A stretch of 18,808 nt of DNA, taken from IMG/VR virus record IMGVR_UViG_2531839477_000015, positions 1-18,808 of that record. One strand, 5' to 3'. Under the pieces are notes generated by a model. The model saw only the letters and a list, made by a program, of their open reading frames with translations. It was not told where the DNA came from and searched no databases. Made by a program: the position numbers and the translations under genes. Origin of the DNA: a virus. Taxonomy: Duplodnaviria > Heunggongvirae > Uroviricota > Caudoviricetes. Below, piece after piece: positions 5,439-9,449 of this stretch. Each line of letters opens with the position of its first letter. Within the stretch, counting starts at the first letter, position 1.

Positions 5439-5732
5439 TCAGTCATTACTGATAGCGCCATAGCGTGAGCGGTAATTACGCAGGCGCGGGTCAATTTCAG
5501 GGAAGTGGGTATATGTGGCTTTGCGGAATGGTCGGATTGATGTCTGGTAAATTCGCTCGCGTTCTTTTTTCTCTGCAAGCCATATACAGTGGCGAAATTC
5601 CTTTTCATCTTTCGTTTCCTGCGGTAGAGACATTATCCGATCGTAGTTTTTTCTGAATTTATCCAGCACCTCCGATACGGAATTGCCGGAACAGCGGCGC
5701 GCGTCGTCCGCACCATACAGAGGCGCTGGCAT
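5439..5732 (-). CDS. Hypothetical protein (97 aa)
   Basis: ATG 5730-5732 with GGAG 6 nt upstream. Confidence 0.55.
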   Translation of the reverse strand: MPAPLYGADDARRCSGNSVSEVLDKFRKNYDRIMSLPQETKDEKEFRHCIWLAEKKERERIYQTSIRPFRKATYTHFPEIDPRLRNYRSRYGAISND

Positions 5733-5745
5733 GATTTTCTCCTGA

Positions 5746-6225
5746 TTAAATTGCGTGAATAGCGTGACGAGGGAATGGGAGAGTTACTGGTTCCTCGTCT
5801 GGGTAGATAGGTTTGTTATGTTTGTGCCACTCGACATGACATGACTTGCAGAGCCACATCACATCGGTTGGTTTGCTGTAGTCGCAGTGGTGCGCCTGTG
5901 GTTTACATTCTGATCCGCAGCACTCACATTGTGGTGGTCGGATTAGCTTACCGTCGCGCAAAAAATTACCCACAATGATGTGGGCTTTTCTTTTCCATGG
6001 GTTGCTCTGAATGAACCGCTTTTTGGCTGCGTTACACCGTTCTCTTCCGCGTTCCGATGATTGATATTCTCTCCTTGCTGATACTCGATGTGGCAATCCA
6101 GCGCGTTCTTTGTCGTATTCAGCCAGGCAAGCCCGGCAAGCGGCAGTTAATCCATCTCTGGATGCTCTTCTGATTTGAAAGTCCCTTTCTTCCTTCTGTT
6201 GATGGCATCTTGAGCAGACTTTCAT
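5746..6225 (-). CDS. HNH-family endonuclease with extra Cys pairs
   Basis: C-terminal CECCGSECKPQAHHCDYSKPTDVMWLCKSCHVEWH fits the HNH/zinc-finger pattern; ATG 6223-6225 with GGAG upstream. Confidence 0.6.
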   Translation of the reverse strand: MKVCSRCHQQKEERDFQIRRASRDGLTAACRACLAEYDKERAGLPHRVSARREYQSSERGRERCNAAKKRFIQSNPWKRKAHIIVGNFLRDGKLIRPPQCECCGSECKPQAHHCDYSKPTDVMWLCKSCHVEWHKHNKPIYPDEEPVTLPFPRHAIHAI

Positions 6226-6234
6226 ATTCAGCTC

Positions 6235-6708
6235 CTAGAACGGAATATCCGAATCGTCAAAATCCATAGGTGGTTCGCTGTGATTCCCCTGCTGCTGAGA
6301 TTGCTGTCTTTGTTGCTGACCGTTATTTCGCTGAGGTGAAGACTGTTCATTGCCTCCTTGCTTGCCACCAAGCATTTTCATGGTTCCACCAACGCCCACG
6401 ATGACTTCGGTAGTGAACCTATCCTGTCCGCTTTGATCCTGCCATTTTCTTGTCCGTAATTTGCCTTCAAGATAAACCTCTGAGCCTTTTCGCAGATATT
6501 CGCTGGCAATTTCTGCCAGTTTCCCGCTCATTACCACGCGGTGCCACTCCGTCTGCTCCTTTTGCTCTCCAGTTTGCTTATCACGCCATTGTTCTGACGT
6601 AGCAACTGTAAGGTTTGCAAATGCCGTTCCTGATGGTGAATATCTGATTTCTGGATCATGCCCAAGGCGACCAATAATGATCACCTTATTTACGCCTCTA
6701 CTTCCCAT
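6235..6708 (-). CDS. ssb: Single-stranded DNA-binding protein
   Basis: N-terminus [23 protein letters not shown]...TEWHRVV, Gln/Gly-rich linker and C-terminal [12 protein letters not shown] tail, matching SSB. Confidence 0.93.
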
Positions 6709-7416
6709 TTATGCCGCCTGTTTTAGTTCGTTAACTCTGATGTTCATTACCTGAACGCATTTAGCCTGCGCCTCCTCGTTGCCAGCCATTAATTGCCAGT
6801 CACGCTGATAACGCTCGATGAGTTTTTTCTTGTCAGTTTCTGTTGATGCATAATCGCTGAAGTCTTTCAGGATTTGTTCGCAGTCAACCGATGGAGATTT
6901 CTGGTTGGTATTTTCTGGTGATGGTTTGTTATCTGATGCTGGGATTGCCCATCCCGGCAGCGATGGAGGGAGCCAGTAAAATCCTGTTCCATCCTTGAGT
7001 TTTGCCCTGTGCCATCCCTGCTTTTTATCGAGAGATGTTTGTGCGAAACCTTCCTCAAGGTTATACAGATACCGACCGATTCCCCACTGAACGGCAGCGC
7101 GCTTCATTGCACCGGAACGACCACCTTTGACGGCTTCTACCTGCGTGTTTTCAGCAGCATCCCATTTGGTTACCCATTCGGAATCAATCTTGATTGATAT
7201 GCCGCATTCAACTCCGCCGTTGTTGGGAATATCGCGGTATTCATTGCGCCATCCTGCTTTGCCGCAAACATCGTCCAGGCGTTTCATGATTGCCCTGTTC
7301 GTGACATAAGCCAGCACCATAGCCCACACCTTTCCATCGCGTGTTTTACCGCTTTGCTGTATTCGCCATTCGATATCTTCAGGGCTGAATGGCTCATCGA
7401 ATTTGTTCAAATCCAT
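6709..7416 (-). CDS. Rad52/22-type single-strand annealing protein (recombinase)
   Basis: Motifs NRAIMKRLDDVCGKAGW and GGRSGAMKRAAVQWGIGRYLY match the Rad52-family signature; sits directly upstream of ssb. Confidence 0.75.
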   Translation of the reverse strand: MDLNKFDEPFSPEDIEWRIQQSGKTRDGKVWAMVLAYVTNRAIMKRLDDVCGKAGWRNEYRDIPNNGGVECGISIKIDSEWVTKWDAAENTQVEAVKGGRSGAMKRAAVQWGIGRYLYNLEEGFAQTSLDKKQGWHRAKLKDGTGFYWLPPSLPGWAIPASDNKPSPENTNQKSPSVDCEQILKDFSDYASTETDKKKLIERYQRDWQLMAGNEEAQAKCVQVMNIRVNELKQAA

Positions 7417-7424
7417 AATTCACC

Positions 7425-7595
7425 TCAGAATGGACACGGCCCAAGGAAATAACGCTGATTTAATACTTCGACTCGTGACAAATTAAGGCATACCCGCATT
7501 CCTTCGCGGTCGCCATTATGGCGATACCAGAGAGCTTTCTGCGTGTACATGCGTCTCTGTAACTTGCTCTCCTTCACTGTGGTTGCAAGTGACAT
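7425..7595 (-). CDS. Small ORF (56 aa), alternative reading of the region
   Basis: ATG 7593-7595 with AAGGAG upstream; overlaps the 7516-7672 ORF in another frame, so at most one of the two is likely real. Confidence 0.2.
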   Translation of the reverse strand: MSLATTVKESKLQRRMYTQKALWYRHNGDREGMRVCLNLSRVEVLNQRYFLGPCPF

Positions 7596-7672
7596 GAATA
7601 TCTCCTTCGTTACCGATTAAATCTTTCATCTGACGAATGAATTCTTCGTCTGACCAGTTATCTGTAAAACTC
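7516..7672 (-). CDS. Small ORF (52 aa), coupled to the kil-like ORF
   Basis: ATG 7672-7674 overlaps the stop of the upstream ORF (ATGA); weak Shine-Dalgarno. Confidence 0.3.
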
Positions 7673-7823
7673 ATTTCCTGCGATACCACGGAAGGTTGAT
7701 AGCTGATTTCATCGCTTTATTTGCTTCAAGCCACATTTTTGAATCACCAATAAATCTGGCTATTACTGCTTTGTTTTGTGCAGCACGAAGCACCTGGTGA
7801 TTGATGGCTATTTCATTGCGCAT
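7671..7823 (-). CDS. kil: Kil-like small protein (putative FtsZ/cell-division inhibitor)
   Basis: 50-aa ORF; segment IARFIGDSKMWLEANKAM resembles the FIGDEKM core I recall from lambda Kil; lies between cIII-like and the recombination genes as in lambda; GGAGG upstream. Confidence 0.4.
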   Translation of the reverse strand: MRNEIAINHQVLRAAQNKAVIARFIGDSKMWLEANKAMKSAINLPWYRRK

Positions 7824-7942
7824 AACGCCTCCAGTTGTTTCTTTGCTGCTCTGATTAATTGTTTAACTCGGCGTGATAATTCAGATTCGTGCGGGTAGAA
7901 AGCGGACATGACGCCGCTACCCGCGAACTGAAAGTGCATCAT
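7808..7942 (-). CDS. cIII: CIII-like protein (putative FtsH inhibitor / CII stabiliser)
   Basis: 44-aa ORF MMHFQFAGSGVMSAFYPHESELSRRVKQLIRAAKKQLEALCAMK; pattern M-x-[FY]-x-[IF]-AG ... ESxLxRRxxxLxR resembles lambda CIII; GAAGGAG 6 nt upstream. Confidence 0.5.
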   Translation of the reverse strand: MMHFQFAGSGVMSAFYPHESELSRRVKQLIRAAKKQLEALCAMK

Positions 7943-8017
7943 GGGTAACTCCTTCTGTTTGATTGCATAACGAAAACGCCTCGAGTGAAGCGTTATTGGT
8001 ATGCGGTAAAGCCGCGC

Positions 8018-8329
8018 TTAGGCGGCTGATGTTTCTTCTTTCAGGCTTTCGAGATATTTACGTGGGTCGTCGTAACATTGGCATTCGCTATACCAATCCA
8101 CCCAGCGATCAGTAAGCCCCATATCTGATAAATCTTCATCGGTAAGGCTCTCATCCCACATCTCAAGGCCGTTAGCATTGCAGTAATCAGGCTTGATGTT
8201 GTTGTCATACTGAAAGGCGTCATAATCAGCCAGTGCGTCCATCAGGCGAACACCCTCTTCAACACTTGCCACTTCTACAATGAACGGCTTCATAGGTACT
8301 TGCGGGATATGCCAGACACGTAATTTCAT
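8018..8329 (-). CDS. Hypothetical acidic protein (103 aa)
   Basis: Start trimmed to ATG 8327-8329 (MKLRVWHIPQ...) with GGAGGA upstream. Confidence 0.55.
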   Translation of the reverse strand: MKLRVWHIPQVPMKPFIVEVASVEEGVRLMDALADYDAFQYDNNIKPDYCNANGLEMWDESLTDEDLSDMGLTDRWVDWYSECQCYDDPRKYLESLKEETSAA

Positions 8330-8472: not shown

Positions 8473-8943
8473 CTAATAAAACACCCAGTTTTCTGTTTCT
8501 TGGTTGTGTCCAAAGTTATATTCAATATCTGGTGTTGATGTATCAATATTCTTAATCCCATCAACAAGAGTTGATACAACAGCCAAATCTTGTTTGATTC
8601 TCATCAAATGGTATTTCTTCCGGCGCAATAAACTTTCAATGGCAAGTTTCTTCGTCGGGAACGCAAAAGATCTTTCTGCATTTTTTGCTACTTTCTTAAT
8701 TGCATATCTATTTCTCCTTTGTTTCCATTCCTGTAACCACTGATTTGGTGCTGGTTTAAAATTAACAATCCAATGCGCAGGAACCAACCATGCATAATGC
8801 TCTGTCTGATGAAAAGCTATATATTGAAGTGCGCATATTTTTATCCCATCTTCTTCAACTGTCGCCTGGAATCTCCAGAAAACAGGCATTCCATCATGTT
8901 CAGTTTCTGATTCAGGAAAAGGTACGCTCCATGATTTTGTCAT
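8473..8943 (-). CDS. Hypothetical protein (156 aa), N-proximal moron
   Basis: ATG 8941-8943 with GAGGTGA upstream; no motif recognised; a 60-nt sample (8701-8760) counts 37% GC versus 55% in a 60-nt int sample (1441-1500). Confidence 0.6.
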   Translation of the reverse strand: MTKSWSVPFPESETEHDGMPVFWRFQATVEEDGIKICALQYIAFHQTEHYAWLVPAHWIVNFKPAPNQWLQEWKQRRNRYAIKKVAKNAERSFAFPTKKLAIESLLRRKKYHLMRIKQDLAVVSTLVDGIKNIDTSTPDIEYNFGHNQETENWVFY

Positions 8944-9143: not shown

Positions 9144-9449
9144 TCAATCGTAATAAGCTGGAATTGATTTTCCGCGTTGCTTCTGGCGGCCTGAACAAGT
9201 CACACCCATTTCACTGCGTGGCTTGCGGTAGTAAATACGGTTCTGTTTACGCTCGACTTCTTCTGCCTTCTTGCAGCGAAGGCTTCCGAGTGATGCTGCT
9301 TTATCTGCTCTGACGCAACCAGAGAGCTTTAGCGCAATTTTTCGTGCCAGTCGCTGCTCTTGCATTGCCTGTTCACGTTGATCCTGTCTGCGTGCTCTGC
9401 GGCGATTTCTGGCGTTATCGTCAGCCAGATATGTAATGACTACTGTCAT
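9144..9449 (-). CDS. N: Antitermination protein N
   Basis: N-terminal arginine-rich motif NARNRRRARRQDQREQ and C-terminus KPRSEMGVTCSGRQKQRGKSIP matching lambda N (...KPGERGITCSGRQKIKGKSIP); GGAGG 5 nt upstream; nutL lies in its leader. Confidence 0.85.
   Translation of the reverse strand: MTVVITYLADDNARNRRRARRQDQREQAMQEQRLARKIALKLSGCVRADKAASLGSLRCKKAEEVERKQNRIYYRKPRSEMGVTCSGRQKQRGKSIPAYYD

Follow-up and report, generated by a model that had tools for sequence, protein, structure and literature searches.

Four short overlapping genes between gene 17 and a Rad52-type annealing-protein gene in a probable lambdoid phage

In phage lambda, kil lies directly 3′ of cIII in the early-left (PL) operon and is followed by gam, and this placement of kil is common to HK97, Sf6, and HK620. 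Both cIII and kil have textbook functions, and the central helix region of lambda CIII suffices to inhibit FtsH. The block of four small ORFs that concerns us here is annotated in Sf6 (genes 32, 31, 30, and 29), HK97, and HK022, an annotation that for HK97 and Sf6 dates back two decades. Gene 17 of P22 permits growth on a Fels-2 lysogen (P22 record). The Arf protein of P22 helps recombination but is not essential, and there is genetic evidence for its function (PMC12315714). In HK620, the HkaM protein was called an orphan in a publication that draws no link to HK97 gp42 or Sf6 gp29, and sak4 and ssb alone equaled the whole module, including hkaM, in oligonucleotide recombineering (PMC5928155).

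The window analyzed here is the whole 18,808-nucleotide stretch of viral DNA. Between its homolog of gene 17 and a gene for a Rad52-type annealing protein, four ORFs of fewer than 60 codons lie on the minus strand (Table 1), too short to appear in a list of ORFs cut off at 60 aa. The original prediction, a compact cluster of overlapping sub-60-aa ORFs, proved to be real, as all four are on the same strand and their matches go far beyond chance. Families were assigned with the curated gathering thresholds of Pfam and with PHROG profiles; NCBIfam holds a model for none of the small proteins. It had also been noted that lambda carries kil and cIII at this position, and we find that the gene order is indeed that of lambda and also of P22, HK97, Sf6, and HK620. 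The block was found in 1131 of 5426 complete E. coli genomes. With good confidence, we regard the region as the unremarkable midsection of a PL operon that belongs to a lambdoid mosaic, phage or prophage, of E. coli or Shigella, with four small genes whose biochemical activities are presumed throughout.

Table 1 Features of the small-gene cluster and its neighborhood, in the order of the minus strand
Feature	Coordinates	Strand	Basis
Gene 17 homolog, 103 aa; 5′ neighbor of the cluster	8018..8329	-	Pfam PF17420 GP17, 5.1e-56
Putative terminator-like hairpin in the gene 17/cIII gap	7975..7994	-	Consensus scan
Shine-Dalgarno (SD) AAGGAG of cIII, 6 nt 5′ of the ATG	7949..7954	-	Direct sequence reading
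cIII, 44 aa, HK97/HK022 type	7808..7942	-	PF08134 and phrog_550
kil, 50 aa	7671..7823	-	PF06301 and phrog_2055
ORF52, 52 aa, Arf-like	7516..7674	-	phrog_2123, 1e-41
SD GAAGGAG of ORF56, 6 nt 5′ of the ATG	7602..7608	-	Sequence reading
ORF56, 56 aa, HkaM family	7425..7595	-	phrog_1723, 9.4e-36
Rad52/Rad22-type single-strand annealing protein, Sf6 gene 28 type	6709..7416	-	PF04098, 5e-26; phrog_1097, 3.5e-130
Phage SSB, C-terminal end ...DDSDIPF	6235..6708	-	phrog_44, 1e-64
Abc2 anti-RecBCD gene	5439..5732	-	phrog_656, 2.8e-54

The putative hairpin between gene 17 and cIII occupies the position of the tL2-type terminators annotated in P22, HK97, and HK620. A promoter scan returned one promoter-like site, inside ORF52, which is chance level (1 found versus 2.1 expected), and Rfam gave zero RNA families across the entire window. 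Mosaic breakpoints fall at 7825, 7674, and 7424, all of them gene boundaries, so that ORF52 and ORF56 move together as a single 251-nt mosaic unit.

The first two genes were called correctly as cIII-like and kil-like. The cIII product matches PF08134 over its full length (1-37 of 37; 1.5e-29, 101.9 bits for a cut-off of 25), aligns to lambda CIII, and is 98% identical to HK97 CIII, 41% to P22 C3, and 30% to lambda CIII. Its core, ES.L.R..L.R..K.L, is conserved, with E19, S20, L22, R24, L29, R31, K35, and L37 invariant among the window, lambda, P22, and HK97. Like these homologs, it is small, and in the PL operon its gene is preceded by N, ral, and gene 17 and followed by kil. However, with an E of 0.23 the product does not reach the threshold of PF02061, the model specific for lambda, and is devoid of the C-terminal NQPGVP... 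extension found in lambda and P22 CIII. By homology, it is presumed to inhibit FtsH, which would stabilize CII and favor lysogeny. Kil scores above the gathering threshold of PF06301 (6.4e-20, 70.8 bits, cut-off 27.6), matches phrog_2055 at 5.5e-35, aligns to lambda Kil with 47% identity, and is the name that RefSeq gives to this product. The kil gene has an SD (GGAGG, 7828-7832) 4 nt 5′ of its ATG, and its start overlaps the end of cIII by 16 nt, a start/stop overlap in the same slot as in lambda. It differs from lambda Kil by a 7-residue N-terminal extension and another C-terminal end (PWYRRK). Homology suggests that it would block FtsZ-ring assembly and cause filamentation.

What follows kil is an Arf-like gene, ORF52, where lambda has gam. 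The 52-aa ORF had been placed at 7516-7672, with an upper coordinate two nucleotides short of the correct 7674, and 7516-7672 gives no translation. ORF56 lies in the +1 frame relative to ORF52, with an overlap of 80 nt, and had been described as a frame competing with it. The overlap stands, but the two are not alternatives, as Sf6 annotates both (genes 30 and 29). Nor is ORF56 a mere competitor: it is the better-supported gene of the two, as the pattern of substitutions in the shared stretch is that of its frame. In a set of 95 close distinct modules, this stretch is polymorphic at 12 of the 25 third positions of ORF56 codons, compared with 3 of 26 first and 1 of 26 second positions. Read as ORF56, the variants of these close modules in the overlap comprise 15 synonymous and 4 non-synonymous changes; read as ORF52, they comprise 1 and 18, respectively. 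In divergent loci, the overlap has a pS of 0.5-0.8 and a pN of 0.12-0.39 when read as ORF56, whereas pN exceeds pS when it is read as ORF52. On these comparisons, ORF52 and ORF56 both appear to be genes, unequally supported, and conservation together with the ribosome sites suggests that both are translated.

The case for ORF56 extends well beyond the overlap. The ORF is intact in 138 of 139 distinct sequences and ends in Pro-Phe-stop in 138 of the 139 DNA sequences; its own ATG is kept in 137, and an SD-like motif is present in all 139. The strong GAAGGAG motif sits in codons 23-25 of ORF52 (Glu-Gly-Asp), and the arrangement of motif, spacer, and ATG is retained in divergent loci. ORF56 would be translated independently from this site, inside ORF52. 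Indeed, it is also found with no ORF52-like gene 5′ of it, in HK620 and in six other loci (L170, L171, L090-L092, and L095). Third-position periodicity and a pS far above pN run over its whole length, and in the part outside the overlap, synonymous change is saturated and pN is ~0.13. AlphaFold2 (AF2) models it confidently as a two-helix hairpin (pLDDT 92.9) with a C-terminal tail that has no secondary structure and lower confidence. Searches of the PDB and BFVD with this model found generic helical hairpins only, none at E <= 0.001, and a search against the sequences of solved structures gave no match below E 0.16. These data bear on the opposite reading, in which ORF52 is the sole gene, coding throughout its 52 codons, and ORF56 is open by chance. 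That reading agrees with RefSeq, insofar as one of two inspected records annotates ORF52 and both lack ORF56. However, a chance frame would not be expected to have a strong ribosome site of its own, a confidently predicted fold, purifying selection in its unique part, and a family whose members all keep a length of 56-62 aa and six invariant residues down to 34% identity. The comparative data appear to have refuted this reading already, and we give it practically no credence.

The evidence for ORF52 is of another kind. Its ATG overlaps the stop of kil as ATGA, an arrangement kept in 126 of the 139 distinct sequences, 13 of the 139 lack the ATG, and the coupling to kil is also kept in divergent phages. 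Translation would proceed by re-initiation at this ATGA. The SD of ORF52 itself is weak, an AGGA at a spacing of 2 nt. Comparison with divergent loci gives a pN of ~0.2 and a pS of ~0.47 for the unique part, and pN is below pS in every comparison. Among close variants, the first 26 codons show 9 synonymous and 22 non-synonymous changes (7 and 9 for variants seen at least two times). The sequence comparisons thus point to a moderate constraint that is confined to codons 1-26 (7597-7674), and the ribosome site of ORF56 could account for part of it. The tail (7516-7596) is ORF56 read out of frame, and it is unconstrained. The idea that its length is under selection was considered and rejected, as 38-62% of synonymous randomizations of ORF56 keep this frame open over 26 codons or more. 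The AF2 model of ORF52 shows one helix at residues 9-20 and a disordered tail. A scan of a genome collection with ORF52 returned 6 loci only, and little was gained from it.

ORF52 is the equivalent of Sf6 gene 30 and of the N-terminal part of HK97 gp42.1. Its likeness to P22 Arf (47 aa) lies in its placement, with kil on one side and the gene of the annealing protein on the other, and in a small acidic N-terminus with the motif (F/W)SDEEFI in both proteins. However, this likeness covers only ~22 residues, is statistically weak, and leaves the tail unrelated: hhalign gives a probability of 33.6% (E 4.4e-4) over 22 columns against P22 Arf, and residues 5-26 match the Arf family phrog_2445 at E 0.011. 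The N-terminal peptide MSFTDNWSDEEFIRQMKE also heads independent genes of 31-35 aa; the one gene checked for its context belongs to a RecT-type module. The working part of ORF52 would be its first ~26 residues, a short acidic Arf-like helix, and the remaining 26 residues would be produced by ribosomes running on, out of frame, over the start of the next gene.

It could instead be proposed that ORF56 is the only gene, and that the 5′ part of ORF52 is conserved as mRNA context or ribosome site of ORF56 or through the coupling to kil. The lack of protein-level constraint in the ORF52 tail, an open frame that chance would supply, and the weak SD all fit this proposal, as do the 13 sequences without the ATG and the premature stops found in 2 of the 95 close modules. 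Against it stand the pN well below pS in the first 26 codons, the persistence of the ATGA in divergent phages, the appearance of MSFTDNWSDEEFIRQMKE at the head of other small genes, and the resemblance to the N-terminus of Arf, a protein of genetically supported function. We therefore consider it unlikely, although not negligible, that ORF52 is no gene at all, and we keep the reading of two unequally supported genes.

A third view would make ORF52 and ORF56 one gene, joined by a programmed +1 ribosomal frameshift in the overlap to give a fusion of ~82 aa. The HK97 record does have the two fused in one frame, annotated as the 83-aa gp42.1, and databases hold a few fusion proteins of 81-82 aa; the strong SD-like GAAGGAG within ORF52 and the common mosaic unit could be read in the same sense. 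However, the two extra bases of HK97 occur in none of the ~240 related loci of the gap-free close set, and 1.2 kb away the record has a third such base, through which gp40 loses its ...DDSIPF end; this makes sequencing error the likely source of the fusion frame. The database fusions form clusters of 1-4 sequences with differing junction positions, as expected of sporadic indels. When the overlap was read by eye, without a formal scan, no prfB-like or other recognizable +1 shift site was seen. With the independent start of ORF56, and its occurrence without ORF52, the pair does not have the characteristics of a frameshift pair. We rejected both a programmed frameshift and an HK97-type fusion, and a single joined gene seems highly improbable; the two genes would be translated separately.

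ORF56 is 100% identical to Sf6 gp29 and is the equivalent of HK97 gp42. The link to HkaM has an hhalign probability of 91.8% (E 7e-7), with 51% identity to the family member P0090, which places ORF56, as judged from sequence, in the HK620 HkaM family as a distant homolog. Both proteins are encoded directly 5′ of a recombinase gene and end in ...PF. HkaM differs in its length (62 aa), in following kil immediately with no Arf-like gene between them, and in preceding a Sak4 ATPase rather than a Rad52-type protein. In 18 diverse members, the family shares the C-terminal pattern ...F(L/I)..xPF, with F50, P55, and F56 invariant. An exhaustive profile search found 21 clusters only, among which there was no convincing larger domain-bearing protein and no annotation. 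The picture that emerges is of a predicted two-helix hairpin with a flexible C-terminus bearing the invariant ...FLGxxPF.

The neighborhood of ORF56 points to recombination. The ribosome site of the Rad52-type gene (GAGGTG) overlaps the ORF56 stop, which is 8 nt from that gene in the window. In a survey of all loci with a callable downstream gene (2 loci had none), the 3′ neighbor was a recombinase of the ERF, Rad52, or one of two AAA_24/Sak4 types, at a gap of 7-16 nt. The exception to this spacing is L173, where an in-frame ATG precedes the stop of ORF56 by 13 nt. The absence of gam, stated in the original prediction, was confirmed and is explained by Abc2, which fills its role; the module is of the P22/HK75 recombination type. 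ORF52 and ORF56 would then be accessory factors of this module (annealing protein, SSB, and Abc2) rather than genes of lysogeny or killing. Given that sak4 and ssb sufficed in HK620, an accessory role in recombination is something that we can so far only infer for the ORF56 family.

One conceivable activity comes from the C-terminal end. Like the C-terminal tip of SSB (...DDDIPF, ...NDYPPF), the ORF56 family ends in an invariant terminal x-Pro-Phe-COOH on a tail predicted to lack secondary structure, and modules with this family usually also encode an SSB bearing such a tip. Unlike SSB, ORF56 has non-acidic residues before the Pro-Phe (YFLGPCPF) and no OB fold, so this is a resemblance only. 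As a long shot, the ORF56/HkaM family might act in place of the SSB tip, as its decoy or adaptor, with the exposed x-Pro-Phe end docking in the pockets that accept ...IPF; candidate pockets would be those of the phage annealing protein or of host partners of SSB, for example RecQ, ExoI, RecJ, PriA, or RecO. If true, this would explain both the placement before unrelated types of recombinase and the company of SSB-bearing modules, and processing of ssDNA would be steered toward phage recombination. Literature searches found neither ribosome-profiling data for the small genes nor a described mimic of the SSB tip.

Finally, the four small genes are all already known, ORF56 is the only one that is not ordinary, and the discovery value is small. 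Three practical points remain. Current RefSeq annotation, which names only kil and calls cIII hypothetical, omits the better-supported overlapping gene, ORF56, in both records inspected, although roughly one in five complete E. coli genomes carries it. The ORF52/ORF56 pair offers a clean example of overlapping genes of which one is constrained while the other runs on, a caution for counting "dual-coding" regions. The tie between ORF56 and HkaM would define a compact family that is linked to recombinases and carries an invariant C-terminal Pro-Phe.

The window belongs to a mosaic lambdoid phage or prophage from the E. coli/Shigella group; its best matches (Sf101, N7, mEp043, IME10 and Stx phages) cover only ~30% of it each. 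Its early-left operon carries on the minus strand four conserved small genes with start signals, which are missing from the 60-codon ORF list because each is shorter than 60 codons. All four were found with the features that the original prediction had described, and its interpretation was essentially right; the range given for the 52-aa ORF, 7516-7672, was off by two, has a length not divisible by three, and does not translate (correct, 7516-7674).

Early-left operon features in the window, in operon order
Feature	Coordinates	Strand	Remarks
N-like antiterminator	9144-9449	-	first in the listed order
Unknown gene	8473-8943	-	between N-like antiterminator and gene 17
Gene 17	8018-8329	-	Pfam GP17, 5e-56
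Terminator-like hairpin	7994-7975	-	between gene 17 and the four small ORFs
cIII	7808-7942	-	AAGGAG, 6 nt, ATG
kil	7671-7823	-	GGAGG, 4 nt, ATG; 16-nt overlap of its 5' end with the cIII 3' end
ORF52	7516-7674	-	start codon and kil stop share ATGA
ORF56	7425-7595	-	GAAGGAG, 6 nt, ATG; best ribosome site of the four
Rad52-type annealing protein	6709-7416	-	after the four small ORFs
SSB	6235-6708	-	after the annealing-protein gene
Endonuclease-like gene	5746-6225	-	between SSB and Abc2
Abc2	5439-5732	-	after the endonuclease-like gene

The cIII-like and kil-like assignments were borne out by Pfam matches that scored above the curated cut-offs (101.9 bits for PF08134 and 70.8 bits for PF06301, respectively). 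The cIII product is 98% identical to HK97 CIII, 41% to P22 C3, and 30% to lambda CIII, with the core ES.L.R..L.R..K.L invariant across the four proteins, and Kil is 47% identical to its lambda and 49% to its HK620 counterpart. Family membership suggests that cIII would protect CII by inhibiting FtsH and that Kil would block the FtsZ ring. As predicted, gam is absent; the anti-RecBCD function is instead provided by an Abc2 gene, as it is in P22, Sf6, and HK97. The recombination module of the window, with an anti-RecBCD gene, SSB, and annealing protein but without an exonuclease, belongs to the "HK75" class in a published scheme (PMC12315714). The endonuclease-like gene encodes 159 aa of the Sf6 gene 26 type and matches a PHROG "endonuclease" family (2.5e-47), with weak matches to Lar-like restriction alleviation and endonuclease VII families.

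Relative to ORF52, ORF56 is read in the +1 frame, with 80 nt shared between them. Both frames are annotated in Sf6 (gene 30 for ORF52 and gene 29 for ORF56), as well as in HK022 and others. The 269 loci collected gave 119 distinct 250-nt modules, 95 of which shared over 85% identity with the window (close modules). In the overlap, the third codon position of ORF56 is the first of ORF52, and its second position is the third of ORF52. Polymorphic sites among the close modules fell there at 3/26, 1/26, and 12/25 of the first, second, and third ORF56 positions, and at 7/30, 4/30, and 21/31 in the part unique to ORF56. Read in the ORF56 frame, the overlap held 15 synonymous and 4 non-synonymous variants, whereas in the ORF52 frame the counts were 1 and 18. 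The ORF56-unique part held 26 and 15; the ORF52-unique part held 9 and 22 (7 and 9 for variants seen at least twice). The same frame dependence was found when the window was compared with divergent loci (L172 and L175-L187) by Nei-Gojobori pS and pN: ORF56 gave pS 0.7-0.98 and pN ~0.13 in its unique part and 0.5-0.8 and 0.12-0.39 in the overlap, whereas in the ORF52 frame of the overlap pN exceeded pS by a ratio of 1.4-2.1; the ORF52-unique part gave pS ~0.47 and pN ~0.2. The 56-codon frame, previously regarded as a competing one, is by frame-specific constraint the stronger gene and not a competitor.

Of 139 distinct sequences, 138 had an intact ORF56, and all retained an SD-like motif for it. 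ORF52 had no ATG in 13 of these 139, and premature stops interrupted it in 2 of the 95 close modules. Its length, 52 or 56 codons, is set by the ORF56 allele beneath. When the synonymous codons of ORF56 were randomised, 38-62% of trials still left 26 or more codons open in the ORF52 frame, so the long tail of ORF52 needs no selective explanation. AlphaFold predicted a confident two-helix hairpin for ORF56 (helices 7-27 and 30-51, pLDDT 92.9) and, for ORF52, a single helix (9-20) and then a tail modelled with low confidence. By sequence and models, ORF56 is a gene over its entire length; ORF52 is also a gene, with its first ~26 residues as the probable functional part and the tail as a passenger. 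The only SD-like element of ORF52, AGGA, is too near its ATG, making re-initiation after kil its likely mode of start.

The N-terminus of ORF52, MSFTDNWSDEEFIRQMK, resembles that of P22 Arf, MQHEFSDEEFIALIS, and both genes are placed between kil and the annealing-protein gene; matches to the Arf family are statistically weak (phrog_2445, E 0.011; hhalign probability 33.6%). In P22, Arf aids recombination without being essential, by a mechanism that is unknown (PMC12315714). In ~77 related loci, ORF52 comes immediately after a lambda-type cIII (phrog_550, 1e-22), without an intervening kil. The N-terminal peptide of ORF52 also heads separate 31-35-aa genes with acidic tails. One of these, a 35-aa gene at 1501-1608 of the related locus L273, is followed by a 102-aa gene and then a RecT gene, linking the Arf-like peptide to RecT-type modules too. 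In an 80-aa database protein (P0052), an N-terminal segment matching PF11438 (lambda N-protein peptide family) continues in frame into ORF52 at ...NWSDEEF; this fusion implies that all of the DNA from N to the Arf-like gene was deleted. The same motif is also where several further variants switch sequence.

An exhaustive profile search with ORF56 against 1.84 billion representative proteins yielded only 21 clusters, nearly all of 56-60 aa. Eighteen diverse members share invariant S10, A21, E43, F50, P55, and F56 and always end in ...F(L/I)..xPF. HK620 HkaM (62 aa) matched the profile (probability 91.8%, E 7e-7) and is 51% identical to the family member P0090, placing HkaM as a distant member of the family. 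HkaM was described as an orphan of unknown function by Hutinet et al. 2018 (PMC5928155), where sak4 plus ssb performed as well in oligonucleotide recombineering as the whole HK620 module including hkaM; HkaM is thus dispensable in that assay. Searches of solved and predicted structures with ORF56, by fold and by sequence, found nothing specific. Its invariant Pro-Phe end, modelled with lower confidence and no secondary structure, is similar to the SSB tip (...DDDIPF in E. coli, ...NDYPPF in HK620), the latter being required for Sak4 stimulation (PMC5928155). By analogy, ORF56 might imitate this tip and dock where the tip does, on the annealing protein or in the pockets of host SSB partners; however, the residues ahead of its Pro-Phe are not acidic, unlike those of SSB, which weakens the analogy, and we consider such mimicry doubtful.

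The HK97 record could suggest that ORF52 and ORF56 are joined by a programmed frameshift, as gp42.1 (83 aa) and gp42 (58 aa) share one frame there. Alignment indicated two extra single bases, 7 nt apart, joining the two frames, which occur in none of the ~240 related loci of the close set (all gap-free alignments), and a third 1.2 kb away that destroys the ...DDSIPF end of gp40 kept by its relatives. With a third extra base nearby and the first two unshared, the HK97 fusion is treated as a probable sequencing error in the deposited record. In that record (AF069529.1), the insertions lie at 2502-2753 (two) and near 1497-1510, at the 3' end of the SSB-like gp40, which now ends in ...DDSNPILI. 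Database proteins of 81-82 aa joining both frames form clusters of 1-4 sequences with junctions at differing places, a pattern that would be expected from sporadic indels. ORF56 keeps its GAAGGAG-spacer-ATG in divergent phages, has relatives with no ORF52-like gene upstream (L170, L171, L090-L092, L095, and HK620), and no recognisable +1 shift site was found on reading the overlap by eye; a programmed frameshift is therefore most improbable. ORF56 is predicted to be translated independently of ORF52.

The place of ORF56 is fixed: wherever the downstream gene could be called, it was a recombinase, of the P22-Erf (~130 loci), Rad52 (~115), second ERF (4), 290-aa AAA_24/Sak4 (~10), or HK620 Sak4 (3) type. 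It starts 7-16 nt past the ORF56 stop (the exception, locus L173, has an in-frame ATG 13 nt ahead of that stop) and is usually followed by an SSB ending ...IPF. BLAST breakpoints between mosaic variants in ~90 related loci coincide exactly with gene boundaries: 7825 (ahead of the kil ATG), 7674 (the ORF52 ATG), and 7424 (right after the ORF56 stop). These boundaries indicate that ORF52 and ORF56 act as one exchangeable unit on the right-hand border of the recombination module, to which, judging from context, they may be accessory. Recombinases with unrelated cores (ERF, Rad52-type, and Sak4/AAA_24) have a similar C-terminal ~55 aa ending ...ELKQAA, ...EGAAA, or ...DKAA (6709-6890 in the window; also loci L110, L171, L172, L174, L175, and L176), which suggests a common and exchangeable interaction domain. 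Many prophage SSBs encoded after the recombinase (loci L028, L032, L049, and L091) carry 15 extra residues, APVTLPFPRHAIHAI, past the canonical ...MDFDDDIPF, so that the usual tip would no longer be terminal.

Of 5426 complete E. coli genomes, 1131 carry the block of four small ORFs, and annotations of these ORFs in Sf6, HK97, and HK022 go back about twenty years; the block is thus already known and ordinary. In the two RefSeq E. coli chromosomes inspected (L269 and L270), the NCBI pipeline names kil, labels cIII "hypothetical protein", and annotates ORF52 in one and ORF56 in neither, though the strongest coding signature belongs to ORF56. The small added value of this analysis is to tie HK97 gp42 and Sf6 gp29 to HkaM, to demonstrate that the ORF52 tail is unconstrained, and to point out the omission of ORF56 from these two records.
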